Part shown: one piece after another, positions 3,161 through 63,055 of the stretch
Numbering within the stretch: position 1 is the first letter of the stretch
Layout: the number at the start of each line of letters is the position of its first letter
Sequence record: PV946933.1
DNA from: a phage
Length of the DNA: 64,000 nucleotides
Direction: 5' to 3' (one strand)
Notes under the pieces: generated by a model
Told to the model about the DNA's origin: nothing
The model's input: only the letters and a program-made list of their open reading frames with translations
The model's database searches: none
Made by a program: the position numbers and the translations under genes

Positions 3161-5218
3161 ATGGAACTTATTACAGAATTATTTGACGGCGCTTCGGCGC
3201 CGGTTGTTAACTTAAATCCTAAGCATAAAATACCTCAAATTTTTGCTATTCAAGCCGGTGAAGAAAGCGTGCTTCCTGGATTTAGATTTTGTACATACAC
3301 CTCTGGTGGTGATACAAATAAAAACGTTAAGCCAGGCGATAAAATGATGCATATCGTAATGATAGGTGTTAATGAGAAACTATCATTAGTTAAACTTAAA
3401 AACTTGGGTGGAAATCCAATTGGTGTCATTAATGCGGTTTTTGATACTGCTCTTCAGACAATGAAACAATACAAAATTGACGCATGCTTATTCCGCGTAC
3501 TAAAGAGTAAAACAAATGGTGCAGCTCGTCAAATGCAAGTTATTGCCGACCGTTTAGTACGTACTAAAGGAGCAGGTCGATATGTTCTTTTAAAGGAAAT
3601 CTGGGATTACGATAAAAAGTACGCATATATTATGGTTTACCGTAAAAATGCTAATTTAGAAGACATTCCAGGTGTACCTCCTATTTCAACTGAGTTATTC
3701 ACAAAAGTTGAATCAAAGGTTGGTGATGTTTATGTAGATGTTAAAACAGGTAATGCTGTTCCTAAAGCTGTTGCTGTTGCTGCTTCTATTGCTTTAGAAA
3801 ACGATAAGCGCACGGATCAAGCTGTTATTCAGAAAACTAAAATTAGTCGTCGGTTAGCAGCACAAGCTCAATATTCTACTGTCGATGCTTCACTTCAGGG
3901 TGATAGCTTCGCTGCTAAGAAATATCAAGAGTTTGAATCTAAAGTTCCGGTATATAAAGCAGAAGGACCAATGAACTCTGGCGTTATTCAGGTTGGTTCA
4001 AACTTCAGCAAAGGAGCTATCGGTGGTATGAGAAGTGCTTCCCGTTTTAAATCTAGTGATTATGAATTAGAAAGCTTCCGAAATCATATTGCATTGGCTC
4101 ATGCGCGTTTACGTGATCCATCTATCAAGTTACAGAGCGATATATCATATCAAGGTTCTCAAGAATATTTAAAGAATAAAGAATTTTTTGATTATAAAAC
4201 TGATAAAATTTTAAGTGATCTTGCTGACATTAATATTTCTAATAGCTTTGATGTTATTAAGAAAATTGTCAATGATTTAGTTAAAGGTTCTAAAGCCACA
4301 CCAGATGAAAAGGTAGCTATTGTTCAATTTGTCATGAATGGCATTTATAAATTGATTAATGAGTCTGCTTCTCAAGCGTATGAATATGCAAGTACTGAAG
4401 TAACCCCAAAAGGATTAACTCGGGCTGAGTCTGATGTAATTGAAGATTATTGTGCAGATTCATATGTTGAAATGAACTCGTTCCTTTTAGGTAAACCGGA
4501 TTCTACCCGTGAAGAATATATGGAACGAGCTATTAAACACATCGAGACAATGGATTCTGCCTTTGCCAAAGGATCAGTTCTTCCTCCAGGAACTACACTT
4601 TACCGTGGGCAAGAAGTTACCTTTAAAACTTTACGTCATAATATTGAAAATAAAATGTTCTACTTCAAGAACTTCGTATCCACATCGCTTAAACCAAATA
4701 TCTTCGGTGAGTATGGTAAAAACTATATGGCTCTAGATGATTCCAGTACAGTATTTTCTGGTGAAGGAGAAGGTTCAGTTGATGCTGAAGATTTAATGCA
4801 TATGGGTAGTCACTCTGCTTATGCGAATGAAGATGCTGAAACTAGCGTAGGTATGGTAATTAAAGGGGCTGAGCGAATTAAAGTTATCGTTCCAGGTCAT
4901 TTATCAGGATTTCCATCAGAAGCTGAAGTTATTTTACCACGTGGAATTTTGCTGAAGATTAATAAAGTGAGTACGTACATGATGAAAGAAACTGCTTATA
5001 ATAAGTATCTAATCGAAGGCACAATCGTTCCTCCTTCTGAACAATTAGAAGAATCGGTATATGATGGCGACCATCTAATGGAAACTGGTGAAGTTCGTCC
5101 AATGGCTGGATTTAATCAATTCCTTGTAGAAGAATCAAAAGAAGAGGAAAACGAAGTTTCTCAAATCTTGGCTTCTTTGGTTAACATCAACGGAATGTCT
5201 AAAAAGTTCAAGATGTAG
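3161..5218 (+). CDS. alt: Alt-like ADP-ribosyltransferase, copy 2 (685 aa)
   Basis: paralog of copy 1: conserved N-terminal ~230 aa, LYRGQ / FVSTSL / EAEVILPRG motifs; 3-nt intergenic gap. Confidence 0.8.
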   Translation: MELITELFDGASAPVVNLNPKHKIPQIFAIQAGEESVLPGFRFCTYTSGGDTNKNVKPGDKMMHIVMIGVNEKLSLVKLKNLGGNPIGVINAVFDTALQTMKQYKIDACLFRVLKSKTNGAARQMQVIADRLVRTKGAGRYVLLKEIWDYDKKYAYIMVYRKNANLEDIPGVPPISTELFTKVESKVGDVYVDVKTGNAVPKAVAVAASIALENDKRTDQAVIQKTKISRRLAAQAQYSTVDASLQGDSFAAKKYQEFESKVPVYKAEGPMNSGVIQVGSNFSKGAIGGMRSASRFKSSDYELESFRNHIALAHARLRDPSIKLQSDISYQGSQEYLKNKEFFDYKTDKILSDLADINISNSFDVIKKIVNDLVKGSKATPDEKVAIVQFVMNGIYKLINESASQAYEYASTEVTPKGLTRAESDVIEDYCADSYVEMNSFLLGKPDSTREEYMERAIKHIETMDSAFAKGSVLPPGTTLYRGQEVTFKTLRHNIENKMFYFKNFVSTSLKPNIFGEYGKNYMALDDSSTVFSGEGEGSVDAEDLMHMGSHSAYANEDAETSVGMVIKGAERIKVIVPGHLSGFPSEAEVILPRGILLKINKVSTYMMKETAYNKYLIEGTIVPPSEQLEESVYDGDHLMETGEVRPMAGFNQFLVEESKEEENEVSQILASLVNINGMSKKFKM

Positions 5219-22519: not shown

Positions 22520-23329
22520 TTAGAAACGAGATGCGACTTTCGCATATACACTTACAATATCTTCTGCACCAGGTGCAGTTTTATCTTCTACAGCTTCAGT
22601 GACGAAATTCAGTCCGGCTGCTTCAGTATCAGGAGTATTTATACCCTCAGTAATAGTGCTTTCATCTTTATTAGACTTCTTCACCATTTCTACGATGGCA
22701 CTCAATTTATTTGAGAATTCATCTGAATAATCCATACCTTCGACCAGAGCAGAGACTTTTTCTTTTTGAGACTCAGTCAGATCTTTAGTACTTTCGCTCA
22801 ATGCCACTTCACGCTGCACATAATTGATATATGCGTCGCGCATATTGAGTTCTTCGAACAGACGAGCTGATTCTTCTTTATGTTCTTGCAGCTCTTCTTC
22901 CATTTCAGCCACAACATCAACTGATTCTTCTGGAACAACAACGTTGTGTTCAACAAAGAGCTCTTTTAATCCACCAAGCATGGATTCAAACAGTTCGGCT
23001 TTGATGCCTTTATCAACTGCTAATTTATTTTCAGCGAGCCATTCTTTCGCAAGATGGTCGATGAATTTAGAAGCTTGCTCAGCGATTTTCTTCTCAGCTT
23101 TTTCTTCGGCTTCTTCTTTATTTTTTTCTACTTCTTCTTCTGCTTTTTCAGCAATTTTAGCGATATGAGATTCAGCTAATTTAACGGCGTGCTGCTTGAC
23201 GGTAGCTTCGAATACAGTGCCGAAAGTTTCTTTTGCTTCCGGAGAAATATTAACTGATTCGAAAATACTATCAAGAGCAACGGAAGCATCAATTTTTTGC
23301 GCTTCAGCAATCAGTTGTTCTTTAAGCAT
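22520..23329 (-). CDS. 22: prohead core scaffold gp22
   Basis: 269 aa acidic coiled-coil; position. Confidence 0.85.
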   Translation of the reverse strand: MLKEQLIAEAQKIDASVALDSIFESVNISPEAKETFGTVFEATVKQHAVKLAESHIAKIAEKAEEEVEKNKEEAEEKAEKKIAEQASKFIDHLAKEWLAENKLAVDKGIKAELFESMLGGLKELFVEHNVVVPEESVDVVAEMEEELQEHKEESARLFEELNMRDAYINYVQREVALSESTKDLTESQKEKVSALVEGMDYSDEFSNKLSAIVEMVKKSNKDESTITEGINTPDTEAAGLNFVTEAVEDKTAPGAEDIVSVYAKVASRF

Positions 23330-23359: not shown

Positions 23360-23998
23360 TTATAACGCTTTTTTCATGGCCTCTGCGAGAGCCATATAGG
23401 CGTCATCGGCACTTGTATCGGCTTCCGCCGTCTGTGATTCGGTAATTTCCTTAGGAGTTACCCATGCATCTGGAGCACTTGGACCCCATACTGCATCAAC
23501 ACCTACAGTTAATTTGAATCCTTCGTTTACGATACGATAACCTTTATTTGTGTCAGTCAATGAACCTAATCCACGAGAAGAAACTCCTGGAATCCATCCG
23601 GCACGAATATTAGCTGCTAATTTATCTCCAGGACCGTGGTCACCTTCAATAACACGAGCTCGTCCGTATACGTCATTTCCTTTCCACCACATATCTTCTA
23701 TAATGATAGCGGCTTGCATCGGGTCAACATTAGCGCGTGGAGGATGATTTAATTCTCCGAGAGCTTGTTTAGTTAAAACTTGCTCATTAATATAGTCTTT
23801 TACCGCTTTTTCTAATATGCGTTTTGGATAAAGACGTTTATTTCTATTGACGACTTCCGCTTGCATGAATATTCCTTCGATGTATAAACCCGGTTTTAAA
23901 CCTAAGTCTTTTCCATCGTGGGATTCAAGCATTGGCACACCATCAATAATTTCGCCAGGTTGACCCCAAGTTTCAATTAGTAATTGGGGTTCATTCAT
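23360..23998 (-). CDS. 21: prohead core protease gp21
   Basis: 212 aa; position. Confidence 0.85.
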   Translation of the reverse strand: MNEPQLLIETWGQPGEIIDGVPMLESHDGKDLGLKPGLYIEGIFMQAEVVNRNKRLYPKRILEKAVKDYINEQVLTKQALGELNHPPRANVDPMQAAIIIEDMWWKGNDVYGRARVIEGDHGPGDKLAANIRAGWIPGVSSRGLGSLTDTNKGYRIVNEGFKLTVGVDAVWGPSAPDAWVTPKEITESQTAEADTSADDAYMALAEAMKKAL

Positions 23999-52119: not shown

Positions 52120-52832
52120 ATGAAACTAATCTTTTTAAGTGGTGTAAAGCGTAGTGGAAAAGATACTACTGCAGATTTTATTATGAATAATTATTCTGCA
52201 GTTAAATATCAACTTGCTGGTCCTATTAAGGATGCATTGGCTTATGCATGGGGTGTATTTGCAGCAAACACTGACTATCCTTGTTTAACTCGTAAAGAGT
52301 TTGAAGGAATTGACTATGATCGTGAAACTAATTTAAATCTGACTAAATTAGAAGTAATTACGATTATGGAACAAGCATTTTGCTATCTTAATAGTAAAAG
52401 CCCAATTAAAGGTGTGTTTGTTTTTGATGACGCAGTTAATTTCGTAGCATTTAACAAGATTGCTGACGTTATAAATAATATTGAAGATCAATGGTCAGTC
52501 CGTCGTCTGATGCAAGCCCTAGGTACGGATTTGATTGTTAATAACTTCGACCGCATGTATTGGGTAAAATTATTTGCTTTAGATTATCTTGATAAATTTA
52601 ACTCAGGTTATGATTATTATATCGTTCCTGATACTCGTCAAGATCATGAAATGGATGCGGCTAGGGCGATGGGTGCTACAGTAATTCATGTAGTTCGTCC
52701 TGGTCAAAAATCCAATGATACTCATATTACAGAAGCTGGATTGCCAATTCGTGATGGCGATTTAGTAATTACAAACGATGGTTCTCTTGAAGAACTTTTT
52801 TCTAAAATTAAAAATACACTAAAGGTACTATA

Positions 52833-52833
<1 letters not shown>
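52120..52833 (+). CDS. 1: dNMP kinase gp1
   Basis: P-loop GVKRSGKDT; 237 aa. Confidence 0.9.
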
Positions 52834-53530
<697 letters not shown>

Positions 53531-53542
53531 TTTCACAAAGTT

Positions 53543-53582
53543 GTTTACACGTTGATGAGGTAGTGATACTATTACCTCATCA
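53543..53582 (+). promoter_or_regulatory. early promoter with stem-loop (PeSL-like) copy 1
   Basis: GTTTAC, then tgatgaggta-GTGATACTAT-tacctcatca perfect inverted repeat. Confidence 0.6.
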
Positions 53583-53602
53583 AAATTAATTAGGAAAATA
53601 AA

Positions 53603-53875
53603 ATGAAAACTTTCAAAGAGTTTATCGTTGAATCTGCTCTTAATGAAGAAGTAAAAATTAGCAAATCTGTTAAGACTATGATTGATAATATAAATCATCT
53701 TTATAACATTGATTTGACGAATCATGTAACGTTAGGAAATAAACGAAACTTTTTTGTATTTGATATTTCAGAACTTGATCAGAATCAAATTAATAATATT
53801 GAACGCTTTGCTAATGAAAAAGGTCTGCGTCACGAGACGGCTGGTTATAAAAAATATGCAATTTATTTAAAATAA
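53603..53875 (+). CDS. internal-protein-like head protein with capsid-targeting leader (ipI position, 90 aa)
   Basis: N-terminus MKTFKEFIVE; position next to 57B. Confidence 0.6.
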   Translation: MKTFKEFIVESALNEEVKISKSVKTMIDNINHLYNIDLTNHVTLGNKRNFFVFDISELDQNQINNIERFANEKGLRHETAGYKKYAIYLK

Positions 53876-53878
53876 ATT

Positions 53879-53920
53879 GTTTACACGGTGGTTTAGTTGT
53901 GATACTATTACCCTATCAAA
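53879..53920 (+). promoter_or_regulatory. early promoter with stem-loop (PeSL-like) copy 2
   Basis: GTTTAC...GTGATACTATTACCCTATCAA. Confidence 0.55.
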
Positions 53921-53942
53921 ACAAAACTAAATGGAAATCAAA

Positions 53943-54251
53943 ATGAAAACATATCAAGAATTTATCAATGAAGCGGCTGCACCAAAGACATTCGTTATTA
54001 ATACTCAGGCGAGTCTTGATGATGAGTACGCGGAGGCAATTCTGAGGTCACTTGCTAAGAACGGCGTTGAAGTAATCGCCTCGGACTTTAAGAAAGGGGC
54101 TTCCGAGATGTTTATTTCTATAACTAAAGGATCTAAAGCTAAAATCAAATCATCATTCGGTGTTGCTCGTACCGATCAAATCGACAATCATGACTTTAAA
54201 CAAACTGGTGTTAAACGGCAGAACACAATTGCATCACGCGGAATAAAATAG
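53943..54251 (+). CDS. IPII-paralogous internal protein with capsid-targeting leader
   Basis: MKTYQEFINE leader; body aligns with the ipII product (PKTFVINTQASLDDEYAEAI vs PKVFQICSQGNLDKEYVDAI). Confidence 0.65.
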   Translation: MKTYQEFINEAAAPKTFVINTQASLDDEYAEAILRSLAKNGVEVIASDFKKGASEMFISITKGSKAKIKSSFGVARTDQIDNHDFKQTGVKRQNTIASRGIK

Positions 54252-54263
54252 TTTATAAAAACA

Positions 54264-54305
54264 GTTTACTTTTAGATGGGGTAGTGATACTATTACCCTA
54301 TCAAC
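54264..54305 (+). promoter_or_regulatory. early promoter with stem-loop (PeSL-like) copy 3
   Basis: GTTTAC...gatggggta-GTGATACTAT-taccctatc. Confidence 0.55.
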
Positions 54306-54321
54306 TACTGAGGAGAATAAA

Positions 54322-54507
54322 ATGAAACGTTGTGAATTAATTCGAAATGTTGCTATTGCAATTTCTGCTTCCGCTTTTAGTTTTTCAATGTTTGTTGGAT
54401 TTATATGCGGATTATTAACTACAGCAGAAAATGTTTTTTCACTTGTAGTAGCATTTTTAATTGGTTTAATCGCTATTGTTATGGATAAAATTTCTAAAGG
54501 TGAATAG
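54322..54507 (+). CDS. small hydrophobic (membrane) protein, 61 aa
   Basis: two predicted hydrophobic segments; GAGGAG RBS. Confidence 0.5.
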   Translation: MKRCELIRNVAIAISASAFSFSMFVGFICGLLTTAENVFSLVVAFLIGLIAIVMDKISKGE

Positions 54508-54508
54508 A

Positions 54509-54886
54509 ATGTATAAAGTGTACGCGGATTATCAGGCTAATCCATCTAAAAAGCCAAGCTGTCAAATAGGATGGGCTCATGATACTTTGCTTGAAGCAGT
54601 AGATGCTGCTCAAAAATTGGGATATAAATATGTAGAGATTGTTCAACTACCATCAGGAAAAGTTATTACTCTTGAAGAGTTCAATAATATTAAACCAAAC
54701 TTTTTACTTTTTGCAGGTGATAATTATTATCCTCGTGGTGGATATGATGATTTGATTGCGTATGCTGAAACAGAAGATGAATTACGCCAAATTATTGAAG
54801 ACAATAAATCAAAACGATTTGGCGATAGTTTTGACTGGTGGCAAATCGTAAATGCCCATACACATACTATTGTTGATAAAGGTTAA
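54509..54886 (+). CDS. hypothetical protein (125 aa)
   Basis: ATG at 54509 with AAAGGTGAA RBS. Confidence 0.5.
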   Translation: MYKVYADYQANPSKKPSCQIGWAHDTLLEAVDAAQKLGYKYVEIVQLPSGKVITLEEFNNIKPNFLLFAGDNYYPRGGYDDLIAYAETEDELRQIIEDNKSKRFGDSFDWWQIVNAHTHTIVDKG

Positions 54887-55273: not shown

Positions 55274-55346
55274 TGGGAATTAGCCAAGTTGGTAAGGCAT
55301 AGCATTTTGACTGCTAGATGCAAAGGTTCGAGTCCTTTATTCCCAG
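55274..55346 (+). tRNA. tRNA-Gln (anticodon UUG)
   Basis: cloverleaf read by eye: acceptor tgggaat/attccca, anticodon loop ttTTGac. Confidence 0.85.
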
Positions 55347-55347
55347 C

Positions 55348-55434
55348 GCGAGAATGGTCAAATTGGTAAAGGCACAGCACTTAAAATGCTGCGGAATGAT
55401 TTCCTTGTGGGTTCGAGTCCCACTTCTCGCACCA
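55348..55434 (+). tRNA. tRNA-Leu (UAA), type II, CCA encoded
   Basis: acceptor gcgagaa/ttctcgc; loop cTTAAaa; long variable arm. Confidence 0.85.
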
Positions 55435-55439
55435 AATTT

Positions 55440-55513
<74 letters not shown>

Positions 55514-55523
55514 ATTTAATTTA

Positions 55524-55597
55524 CTCCGTGTAGCTCAGTTTGGTAGAGCGCCTGATTTGGGATCAGGAGGTCCAAGGTTCAAATCCTTGTATGGAGA
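55524..55597 (+). tRNA. tRNA-Pro (UGG)
   Basis: tagctcagtttggtagagc D-arm; loop tTTGGGa. Confidence 0.85.
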
Positions 55598-55599
55598 CT

Positions 55600-55689
55600 G
55601 GAGGCGTGGCAGAGTGGTTTAATGCACCGGTCTTGAAAACCGGCAGTCGCTCCGGCGACTCATAGGTTCAAATCCTATCGCCTCCGCCA
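55600..55689 (+). tRNA. tRNA-Ser (UGA), type II
   Basis: acceptor ggaggcg/cgcctcc; loop cTTGAaa; long variable arm. Confidence 0.85.
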
Positions 55690-55694
55690 GTTTT

Positions 55695-55770
55695 GCTGAT
55701 TTAGCTCAGTAGGTAGAGCAACTCACTTGTAATGAGAAGGTCGGCGGTTCGATTCCGTCAATCAGCACCA
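55695..55770 (+). tRNA. tRNA-Thr (UGU)
   Basis: acceptor gctgatt/aatcagc; loop cTTGTAa. Confidence 0.85.
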
Positions 55771-55771
55771 A

Positions 55772-55846
55772 GGCCCTGTAGCTGGAAGGTTCAAGCAAGC
55801 GACTCATAATCGCCAGATGGTGGTTCAATTCCACCCAGGGCCACCA
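55772..55846 (+). tRNA. tRNA-Ile (CAU, lysidine type) or Met
   Basis: acceptor ggccctg/cagggcc; loop cTCATAa. Confidence 0.75.
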
Positions 55847-55859
55847 AATTAAGAATTAA

Positions 55860-55946
55860 GGGGAGTTATCCCGTAGAGGTAGCGGTGTGGACTGTAAATC
55901 CATTGTCATTGCGACTCGGGTGGTTCGACTCCATCACTCCCCACCA
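55860..55946 (+). tRNA. tRNA-Tyr (GUA), type II
   Basis: acceptor ggggagt/actcccc; loop cTGTAaa; long variable arm. Confidence 0.8.
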
Positions 55947-55950
55947 ATTT

Positions 55951-56025
55951 GGATGTGTAGCTCAATGGCAGAGCGATCGCCTGTTAAGCGATTGGTTATA
56001 GGTTCGAATCCTATCACGTCCGCCA
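55951..56025 (+). tRNA. tRNA-Asn (GUU)
   Basis: acceptor ggatgtg/cacgtcc; loop cTGTTAa. Confidence 0.8.
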
Positions 56026-56029
56026 AATC

Positions 56030-56105
56030 CGAGGCATAGCTCAGAAGGAAGAGCAAGGACCTTCTAAGTCCTGGGTCGTAGGTTCGATCCCTACTGCCTC
56101 GACCA
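56030..56105 (+). tRNA. tRNA-Arg (UCU)
   Basis: acceptor cgaggca/tgcctcg; loop cTTCTAa. Confidence 0.85.
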
Positions 56106-57454: not shown

Positions 57455-58018
57455 ATGAAAACCTATGCCGAATTTTTAACCGAAGCAGCAAAATTACCAT
57501 CTGAAGCAGAACTTACTAAAGTATTCTTCCAATTGGACCCAAAAGACCGTGGCGATTTTCTTAAGTGGAAAGCTAAAGCTATTGAAATGTATAACATCGA
57601 TAATAGTTCTTTTACGATGAGTCAAGAAAATAAATTCAATAAAGCATTTTTCAAAATTTCTAAGAAATTAGCATCTGGCGCTCAGGTTCCTAAATCTGCA
57701 TTAGCTACTCCTGAACGTGCACCTGTTAAAATTTCTAAGAATATGTTCGACACTAAAAAATACGTTAATGCTTTGAATAAAGCTCTTGATGCATTGGATG
57801 ATGCAAAGAAGGCAGCCCGTGATCTTCAAGACGTGTACACCGATTTTGATCGTAAAACTAAAGGTTCTATTTCAAATAGCGAACGCAATAGTGTAAGTGT
57901 TTATTCTGATAGCCTTGATGTTCTTGGCGATGCGTATACTGAAATTAAAAATCGTATTAACACCGCATCTAAGCTAAAAGCTGCCGTAGAAGCTATAATA
58001 ACTAAACTAGGTAAATAA
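57455..58018 (+). CDS. internal-protein-like head protein with capsid-targeting leader (187 aa)
   Basis: N-terminus MKTYAEFLTE; Lys/Ala-rich body. Confidence 0.6.
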   Translation: MKTYAEFLTEAAKLPSEAELTKVFFQLDPKDRGDFLKWKAKAIEMYNIDNSSFTMSQENKFNKAFFKISKKLASGAQVPKSALATPERAPVKISKNMFDTKKYVNALNKALDALDDAKKAARDLQDVYTDFDRKTKGSISNSERNSVSVYSDSLDVLGDAYTEIKNRINTASKLKAAVEAIITKLGK

Positions 58019-60759: not shown

Positions 60760-61728
<969 letters not shown>

Positions 61729-61799: not shown

Positions 61800-62117
61800 A
61801 TGAAAACGTTTAAAGAATTTATTGCAGAATCTGCCCAAGGACAACGTGTAGAAGGCGGTTATATCTGGATTGAACAAGTTGAGCCGCCAAGTCGCACTTC
61901 TACAGGTAAATGGAAAATCACTGTTGATGGTCCTGGTGGTAAACGTAGGACTCTTAAAGAAATTAACGGGTACTATGAAGAAGCTCTTTCTGACGCGGGT
62001 ACTTATATGATGCAAATCATGATTAAAAACCCAGAAAATCGTTTTGCGGCTAGAGTTTTCCGCCGTATTGGAAATAAGCTTTATGATGCATATTCTAAAA
62101 ACTTCCCTAAAGAATAA
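61800..62117 (+). CDS. internal-protein-like head protein with capsid-targeting leader (105 aa)
   Basis: N-terminus MKTFKEFIAE; basic body. Confidence 0.6.
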   Translation: MKTFKEFIAESAQGQRVEGGYIWIEQVEPPSRTSTGKWKITVDGPGGKRRTLKEINGYYEEALSDAGTYMMQIMIKNPENRFAARVFRRIGNKLYDAYSKNFPKE

Positions 62118-62132
62118 AAATAAAGGAAATAC

Positions 62133-62711
62133 ATGAAAACCTATAAAGAATTTATCGCTGAAGCTTCTGTAGTAAAGGCCAAAGGCATTAATAAAGATGA
62201 GTGGACTTATCGTGGCGGAAACGGCTTTGACCCTAAAACTGCTCCACTTGAACGATATCTAGCCACAAAAGCTTCTGATTTTAAAGCCTTCGCCTGGGAA
62301 GGACTTCGCTGGCGTAACGATCTAAATATTGAAGTTGACGGACTTAAATTTGCTCATATTGAAGATGTTGTTGCTAGTAACTTAGACGCAGCTTTTGTTA
62401 AAGCCGACAGTGATCTTCGTCGCTGGAATTTAAAACTGTTCTCTAAACAAAAAGGCCCGAAGTTTGTGCCTAAAGCCGGTAAATGGGTCATTGATAATAA
62501 ATTAGCTAAGGCTGTCAACTACGCTGGTCTTGAATTCGCCAAGCACAAATCATCATGGAAAGGTCTTGATGCAATGGCTTTCCGTAAAGAATTTGCCGAT
62601 GTTATGGCTAAAGGCGGCTTTAAGGCAGAAATAGATACCTCTAAAGGTACGTTTAAGGACGCTAATGTTCAGTACGCTTATGCCGTTGCTAATGCAGCCC
62701 GTGGTAATTAA
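62133..62711 (+). CDS. ipIII: internal protein III
   Basis: MKTYKEFIAE leader; 192 aa; position next to e; recalled similarity to T4 IPIII. Confidence 0.8.
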   Translation: MKTYKEFIAEASVVKAKGINKDEWTYRGGNGFDPKTAPLERYLATKASDFKAFAWEGLRWRNDLNIEVDGLKFAHIEDVVASNLDAAFVKADSDLRRWNLKLFSKQKGPKFVPKAGKWVIDNKLAKAVNYAGLEFAKHKSSWKGLDAMAFRKEFADVMAKGGFKAEIDTSKGTFKDANVQYAYAVANAARGN

Positions 62712-62752: not shown

Positions 62753-63055
62753 ATGAAAACATTTAAAGAATTTATCACTGAAGCAAAAGCCCCGAAGGTT
62801 TTTCAAATTTGTTCACAAGGAAATTTAGACAAAGAATACGTTGACGCCATCGTAGCAAGCATTGTCAACCAAGGCGTGCAAGTAGATGCAGTTGAATTTA
62901 CCAAAGGCCCTACCTTTAATATCGTTGTATCTAAGGGTTCTTTGGCTAAAATTAAAAAGGCCTGGGGTGTTATGAGAGCTTACCAAGTAGATGATTCTGC
63001 TCCCGGGCCGAAAGTACGAATGAATACCCTTAAGGGAGGCCGTGAATACGTTTAG
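62753..63055 (+). CDS. ipII: internal protein II
   Basis: MKTFKEFITE leader; 100 aa; position. Confidence 0.75.
   Translation: MKTFKEFITEAKAPKVFQICSQGNLDKEYVDAIVASIVNQGVQVDAVEFTKGPTFNIVVSKGSLAKIKKAWGVMRAYQVDDSAPGPKVRMNTLKGGREYV

Follow-up and report, generated by a model that had tools for sequence, protein, structure and literature searches.

Two internal-protein cassettes, ip9 and ip7, at the ipI locus of a T4-like phage encode candidate injected inhibitors of host defence

The internal proteins (Ips) of phage T4 carry an N-terminal leader that targets them to the head and is cleaved by gp21, and the mature proteins are packaged and injected (PMC3012670; bioRxiv 10.1101/2022.04.14.488369). 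T4 Ip1, Ip2 and Ip3 each inhibit one distinct GmrSD-type enzyme, with no cross-protection, and the authors of that study propose the same role for the other proteins of both Ip loci (PMC12373910). Bas37_0260, a leader-bearing protein encoded at the same locus in Bas37 (phage KarlGJung, MZ501089), is an injected inhibitor of McrBC (HIDEN-SEQ preprint, bioRxiv 10.1101/2025.11.20.689424). All four of the leader-bearing Ips characterised to date (Ip1, Ip2, Ip3 and Bas37_0260) thus act on type IV restriction enzymes.

Here we analyse the corresponding locus in a 64,000-nucleotide stretch of phage DNA (PV946933.1), hereafter called the window. The nearest records over positions 53531–54330 are the Escherichia phages ECO07P3 (99.6% identity) and ECO07P2 (99.1%), and we assign the source phage to Tequatrovirus, the T4-like phages. 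The genes on the + strand follow the order gene 3, gene 1, 57A, 57B, ip9 (ORF1), ip7 (ORF2), tRNA.4, tRNA.3, tRNA.2 and a ten-tRNA cluster. The interval from 57B to tRNA.4 corresponds to the classical T4 ipI locus, one of the two polymorphic Ip loci (57B–tRNA.4 and e–denV), and the preliminary description had correctly placed the two ORFs there. Its upstream boundary is gene 57B (53075..53530, + strand), which carries this name in the T4, RB32 and T2 annotations; it matches Pfam PF23474 Acb1 with an E-value of 2.6e-60, and its predicted product is a nuclease of the Acb1 anti-CBASS family. This anti-CBASS gene adjoins ip9, a neighbourhood that we count in favour of an anti-defence role. The downstream boundary is the 61-aa tRNA.4 ORF (54322..54507, + strand; phrog_1692), so named in the RB32, T4 and T2 annotations. 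Both ip9 and ip7 are already-named T-even internal protein genes, and the window contains no new gene.

The leader of the T-even Ips, as defined by Black and by Repoila, is a segment of ~10–11 residues of the form MKT(Y/F)(Q/K)EFI-x-E. Both ORFs begin with it, as MKTFKEFIVE in ORF1 and MKTYQEFINE in ORF2, which bears out the earlier observation of two ORFs with a capsid-targeting leader. A six-frame scan of the 64 kb with the pattern M-[KR]-x-[YF]-x-[ED]-F-[ILVM]-x-[ED] returned exactly six matches, and each of them opens a + strand ORF. For so specific a motif, this far exceeds what chance would give. The leaders of Ip9 and Ip7 align with those of T4 IPI and IPII and of RB15 Ip5, Ip7, Ip8 and Ip9. 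At the leader end, residues 8–10 form the (L/I)-x-E protease motif (I-V-E|S in Ip9 and I-N-E|A in Ip7); the phage also has the gene for the cognate protease, and the cleavage itself is predicted. The putative leader remover is the prohead serine protease encoded by gene 21 (23360..23998, − strand; Pfam Peptidase_S77, E 1.5e-111), and the targeting partner of the leader would be the scaffolding core protein encoded by gene 22 (22520..23329, − strand; Pfam T4_CASP, E 9e-90). If the biology of T4 applies, the leader would direct the Ip9 and Ip7 precursors into the prohead scaffolding core, gp21 would cut after Glu10 to leave mature proteins of 80 (Ip9) and 92 (Ip7) residues, and these would be packaged alongside the DNA and delivered by injection to the next host. 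Our literature searches found no virion or functional experiments on Ip7 or Ip9.

The ip9 gene (53603..53875, + strand) encodes a 90-aa precursor, in which the leader occupies codons 1–10 (53603–53632). ORF1 aligns over its full length with RB15 Ip9 (CAA84463; 79% identity, 90/90 aa, E 7e-55) and matches phrog_7673 over residues 1–90 (E 9.4e-56), and we identify it as Ip9. The family was found in 182 of 50,697 phage records, and an identical (100%) Ip9 is present in phage ECO07P2. The predicted mature protein has 80 residues, a mass of 9.3 kDa and a near-neutral, weakly basic pI of 8.0. In it the [LIV]-x-E motif recurs twice, after residues 15 and 57. Because of these extra sites and the weakly basic mature form, the processing of Ip9 could differ from the prediction.

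T4 IPI/IPI*, the inhibitor of the E. coli CT596 GmrSD, resembles Ip9 in its 57B–tRNA.4 locus, its N-terminal targeting leader, its small size and its status as a presumed injected inhibitor. However, the similarity detected by BLASTP ends with the first 7 residues, and the propeptide of IPI, which is a member of phrog_4363, is 19 residues long. In IPI*, helices at the termini flank two beta sheets (PMC3012670), whereas the AlphaFold2 model of Ip9 is a compact structure (pLDDT 78) with the order alpha-alpha-beta-beta-alpha-beta-beta. We found no sequence or fold homology of the mature part to IPI*. The earlier suggestion that ORF1 is an IPI-type protein is accordingly replaced by its assignment to Ip9. 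A fold search of BFVD with Ip9 gave one significant match, an unnamed 535-aa protein.

The ip7 gene (53943..54251, + strand) encodes a 102-aa precursor with 97% identity to RB15 Ip7 (CAA84464) over 102/102 aa. It matches phrog_2667 (E 2.7e-42), and we identify ORF2 as Ip7. An alternative in-frame ATG at 53931 would add MEIK to the N-terminus. We take the start as 53943 on the grounds of the repeated block of ribosome-binding site and start codon (GGAAA..AAAATGAAAAC, repeat D2) and of every annotated homologue. Mature Ip7 is predicted to have 92 residues, a mass of 9.9 kDa and a pI of 9.7, with 15 K+R among the 92 residues. Its AlphaFold2 model (pLDDT 75) has a ferredoxin-like beta-alpha-beta-beta-alpha-beta order, and the leader and the tail are disordered.

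A second Ip7-family gene (62753..63055, + strand; 100 aa, leader MKTFKEFITE) occupies the position that ipII holds in T4. Its product and Ip7 are 50% identical over 82 aa (E 3e-26) and 44% identical over the full alignment, in agreement with the ~45% given in the preliminary description, and both fall in phrog_2667. T4 IPII (Ip2, inhibitor of the ECOR21 GmrSD/BrxU) is of comparable length (100 aa) and begins with a leader of identical type, but it belongs to phrog_7857, and only 11 leader residues align with Ip7 or with the product of 62753–63055; mature Ip7 has no homology to mature T4 IPII. The two genes of the window are therefore true paralogues within the Ip7 family and not paralogues of T4 IPII, so that the paralogy noted earlier is real and the IPII label attached to it is not. 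Two Ip7-family genes in one genome are unusual: the family was found in 284 of the 50,697 phage records, and these 284 records held just 288 matching places.

Bas37_0260 is likewise a small leader-bearing protein encoded by an alternative cassette at the 57B–tRNA.4 locus. It represents neither Ip7 nor Ip9 and forms a distinct 77-aa family, with leader-trimmed hhalign probabilities of 0.1% to Ip7 and 0.3% to Ip9. Its BLASTP similarity to the two proteins is dominated by the leader, and the neighbouring bas37_0261 is Ip5.

Among the described loci, those of RB15 and RB32 are the most similar: their ip genes share with the ip9 and ip7 of the window the locus, the leader and the flanking repeats (a 43 bp direct repeat in the RB32 annotation). 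RB15 and RB32 differ in having Ip5 and Ip8 cassettes, both of which are absent from the window. Ip genes are flanked by repeats of ~60–70 bp with an early promoter and an overlapping stem-loop, and we found this arrangement here. Three 61-nt copies of a direct repeat (family D1) bound the ip9 and ip7 cassettes. Copy 1 (53523..53583, + strand) contains an early promoter and an overlapping hairpin. The promoter scan identified the former as a sigma-70-type sequence, TTTACA-17-TACTAT with a TG extension, at 53544–53572. The hairpin is strong (dG −9.3 kcal/mol, z −5.3) and arises from an inverted repeat around the −10 box. Copy 2 (53859..53919, + strand) has its promoter at 53880–53908 and a hairpin that is degenerate or lost. 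Copy 3 (54244..54304, + strand), which lies upstream of tRNA.4 and closes the cassette array, has a weak hairpin (dG −4.9 kcal/mol, z −1.8). The promoter scan picked up copies 1 and 2, and copy 3 has the same GTGATACTAT element. A second repeat spans the ribosome-binding site, the start codon and the leader codons. Each of ip9 and ip7 thus has its own ribosome-binding site and its own early promoter, the latter inside the ~61-nt repeat. No late-promoter consensus lies directly upstream of either gene; the nearest upstream one, TATAAATA (52470..52477, + strand), is inside gene 1. Terminator prediction over 52800–54600 gave no candidate site, and late transcripts from 52470 may read through ip9 and ip7.

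In order to compare the contents of the locus, we surveyed 39 loci (36 from IMG/VR, together with those of RB32, T2 and ECO07P3). The interval between 57B and tRNA.4 contains nothing, Ip9 alone, Ip7 alone, Ip9 with Ip7, Ip5 with another leader-bearing ORF, Ip8 with Ip9, or other leader-bearing ORFs, and the reverse order, an Ip7-like gene followed by Ip9, also occurs. The comparison with RB32 reveals a mosaic. The identity is 98–100% from 57B to ~53620, inside the leader codons of ip9, 68–85% across the ip9 body and the middle repeat, and ~97% from ~53940, at the ip7 leader, through tRNA.4. A 328-bp segment of RB32 that is absent from the window is the Ip5 cassette. The dS against RB32 is 1.46 for ip9, as compared to 0.06–0.10 for 57B, ip7 and tRNA.4; at about 1.5, the ip9 of the window is a deeply diverged allele, of the type present in WG01, QL01 and IME341 (95–96% identity). 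This identity mosaic and the ip9 dS far above that of its flanks indicate a foreign ip9 allele in an RB32-like backbone. Both recombination breakpoints map to leader or repeat sequence, and recombination in the repeats and the leader codons moves the cassettes from one phage to another. The window is a clean natural example of cassette replacement at leader codons.

The pairwise dN/dS is 0.06–0.10 for ip9 and 0.08–0.19 for ip7, and gave no sign of gene-wide positive selection in either gene. This purifying selection, together with the compact AlphaFold2 folds, marks both genes as functional. Within Ip9, residues 46–90 are very strongly constrained (dN/dS 0.01–0.03), and residues 11–45 are more relaxed (0.17–0.30). 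Neither protein gave a Pfam match above threshold, and the PDB sequence search with both returned chance-level matches only, with no solved structure, IPI* included. We found no catalytic domain or motif in Ip7 or Ip9, which fits small binder proteins.

How might these proteins act? By analogy with the four characterised Ips, an anti-defence role for Ip7 and Ip9 is reasonable, and the preliminary description, which had regarded them as candidate injected anti-defence proteins, was sound in this respect. Each mature protein would bind and block one specific host nuclease before the onset of phage gene expression. The likeliest class of target would be the modification-dependent (type IV) restriction enzymes, whether of the GmrSD/BrxU or of the McrBC kind, and the targets of Ip7 and Ip9 would differ from each other and from those of Ip1, Ip2, Ip3 and Bas37_0260. 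Neither protein has sequence or profile kinship to any Ip with a known target. On balance, we favour the reading that the locus holds two cassettes whose products are packaged and injected, each blocking a host nuclease that is likely of type IV.

The distribution of Ip9 bears on the nature of its target. By tblastn and profile searches, we found the Ip9 core without the leader, approximately residues 19 to 90, outside the T4-like phages. A 72-aa protein of ~45-kb, Kagunavirus-like siphophages (vB_Eco_AMO_3701M, M01, vB_EcoS-K1_SXAU_B4 and a Klebsiella phage) is 48% identical, and its first residue corresponds to residue 19 of Ip9. Its gene neighbours, an early cluster of small unknown ORFs, offered no functional clue. 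The core also occurs in an unannotated ORF of the Seuratvirus ECP2304, in leaderless metagenomic proteins of 66–77 aa, near the C-terminus of a 755-aa Kuttervirus protein (phrog_3867), and at residues 663–733 of an 861-aa relative of the latter. A Pfam search with the Kuttervirus fusion protein gave nothing significant. A profile built from the Ip9 alignment and run against 1.84 billion representatives had 15 matches, all of them small phage-type proteins or the large fusion, and none of the 15 is annotated. Across the Ip9-core proteins, R68 and G81 are invariant, and N61 and A86 are nearly so. The existence of leaderless homologues of the Ip9 core, including the Kuttervirus fusion, is possibly a new point.

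These homologues suggest that the target of the Ip9 core is not limited to phages with glucosylated hydroxymethylcytosine (glc-hmC) DNA. A strictly glc-hmC-specific Ip9 target is less certain because the leaderless core is found in siphophages and a Seuratvirus without glucosyl-hmC DNA. Ip7, Ip9 or both may therefore be injected anti-defence proteins with a target other than a type IV enzyme, such as another nuclease, an abortive-infection sensor or a host takeover target. The occurrence of the leaderless core in siphophages, Seuratvirus and Kuttervirus would be explained by a target not tied to glc-hmC DNA, and the neighbouring 57B/Acb1 counters CBASS, not restriction. In addition, T2 is restricted by GmrSD-ECOR21 and GmrSD-ECOR17 (PMC12373910). 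T2 carries Ip5 and Ip7, which makes it unlikely that Ip7 acts on either enzyme, with the proviso that T2 stocks may differ between laboratories. However, the DNA of Seuratvirus and Kuttervirus is also modified, so that a type IV enzyme could still be the shared target, and such enzymes are the targets of every leader-bearing Ip characterised so far. We thus judge a non-type-IV target to be possible, though unlikely.

That Ip7 and Ip9 are instead generic basic head-filling proteins, which neutralise DNA charge or aid packaging or ejection and have no specific host target, is improbable. Mature Ip7 is indeed basic, and the lysines of T4 internal proteins touch DNA phosphates (PMC3012670), but mature Ip9 is near neutral. 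Specific compact folds and strong purifying selection, especially in residues 46–90 of Ip9, also argue against generic filling, as do the leaderless homologues of Ip9 in unrelated phages. The highly variable presence of the genes at the locus is typical of accessory host-range genes, not of structural needs.

We regard it as more improbable still that Ip9 acts mainly in the cytoplasm early in infection, expressed from its own early promoter, with a leader that is incidental or weakly functional. In line with such a role, the early promoter, and not a late one, lies directly upstream, the homologues in other phages work without a leader, and the internal L-x-E and I-x-E sites could lead to the destruction of Ip9 in the prohead. 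Nevertheless, the leader is kept in all T4-like Ip9 alleles, and its codons are maintained despite being a recombination site. Moreover, activity in the cytoplasm does not exclude packaging, as T4 ipIII is active by either route, injection or leaderless expression in the cytoplasm (bioRxiv 10.1101/2022.04.14.488369). Finally, the naming of ORF1 as IPI-type and of ORF2 as a paralogue of T4 IPII, in favour of which one could cite that both ORFs share leader and locus with T4 ipI and that ORF2 resembles the ORF in the ipII slot of the window, is almost certainly wrong, since BLASTP detects the leader alone in common with T4 IPI and IPII, the PHROG families differ, and no solved structure in the PDB, IPI* included, matches by sequence.

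In the light of the leaderless homologues, the layout of Ip9 reads as a leader, a short linker and a portable core. The capsid-targeting leader is able to carry foreign cargo, and this layout fits that known capacity. We tentatively raise the idea, which is rather less than probable, that the Ip9 core is a mobile accessory domain, leaderless elsewhere, that became an injected effector in the T4-like phages by the addition of the leader. If so, the target of Ip9 would be a host factor or defence encountered in common by phages of very different DNA chemistries, rather than a glc-hmC-specific GmrSD, and the combination of leader and cargo would offer a natural way of bringing cytoplasmic anti-defence proteins into the virion.

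As the first phage proteins in the cytoplasm, internal proteins decide whether the modified T-even DNA survives the immediate host nucleases. At least ten leader-bearing families exist, and function has been tested in four (Ip1, Ip2, Ip3 and Bas37_0260). Knowing what Ip7 and Ip9 act on would add to the recorded pairings between type IV restriction enzymes and their inhibitors, which bear on phage host range and on the choice of therapeutic T4-like phages.

The ip cassettes of the window are directly preceded by gene 57B (53075-53530, plus strand), whose product belongs to the Acb1 family of anti-CBASS proteins (Pfam PF23474, E 2.6e-60). In PHROGs and in many genome records, 57B is still named “RNA ligase” or “hypothetical”. 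Within ip9, codons 1-6 of the leader (MKTFKE, window 53603-53620) are identical to a sequence of the related phage RB32, where they form the start of Ip5, and the remainder of the gene is foreign. This junction indicates that the leader of ip9, the capsid-targeting sequence, is itself recombinant.

The window encodes further proteins with such leaders. The sixth leader-bearing ORF (57455-58018, plus strand) is situated downstream of the tRNA cluster, in neither of the two classical Ip loci. Its 187-residue product (phrog_2280) starts with MKTYAEFLTE, has a mature pI of 9.5, and may be a further capsid-targeted protein. The tRNA cluster (55274-56105, plus strand) consists of ten genes, for Gln, Leu, Gly, Pro, Ser, Thr, Met/Ile(CAT), Tyr, Asn, and Arg, and the segB homing endonuclease is absent inside it, whereas T4 has eight tRNAs together with segB. 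Relative to the window cluster, ECO07P3 carries an extra tRNA-His. Another leader-bearing ORF (61800-62117, plus strand; 105 residues, MKTFKEFIAE, phrog_3966) immediately precedes ipIII (62133-62711) and has an early-type promoter a short distance upstream. The two late-promoter matches TATAAATA, at 61200 and 61213, are both upstream of the ORF 61234-61728, which intervenes between them and the leader-bearing ORF.

How far do Ip9 sequences extend beyond the window? A leader-bearing Ip9 is present in Escherichia phage Av-05 (KM190144, 99906-106127), at a locus with T4-like genes for an asiA-type anti-sigma factor, a nudix hydrolase, and a lysozyme. The record is 121 kb, circular, and placed in Vequintavirinae/Avunavirus; its classification or assembly may be questionable. 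An Ip9-like domain also occurs within large proteins: at residues 678-737 of a 755-residue protein (phrog_3867) of the Kuttervirus Salmonella phage maane (locus L009, 473-2740), and at residues 663-733 of its 861-residue metagenomic relative (P0055).

The cassettes are also rearranged in other phages. The 77-residue “ip7 protein” of Escherichia phage OLB35 (P0031; MH992122, 75912-76007) looks like a natural chimera, in which an Ip7 truncated at the N-terminus continues in the same reading frame into the last 32 residues of an Ip9 allele (DENQFNNIQRFANDKGLRHEPGGYKKYAIYLK). Its origin would be explained by a deletion that joined an ip7-like cassette to a neighbouring ip9 cassette, the two being arranged as in the IMG/VR locus L014 (IMGVR_UViG_2974739009_000001, about 4034-4720), where an Ip7-like gene (68% identity) is followed by Ip9 (73% identity). 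This order is reversed relative to that in the window, and therefore the cassettes vary in order as well as in presence.
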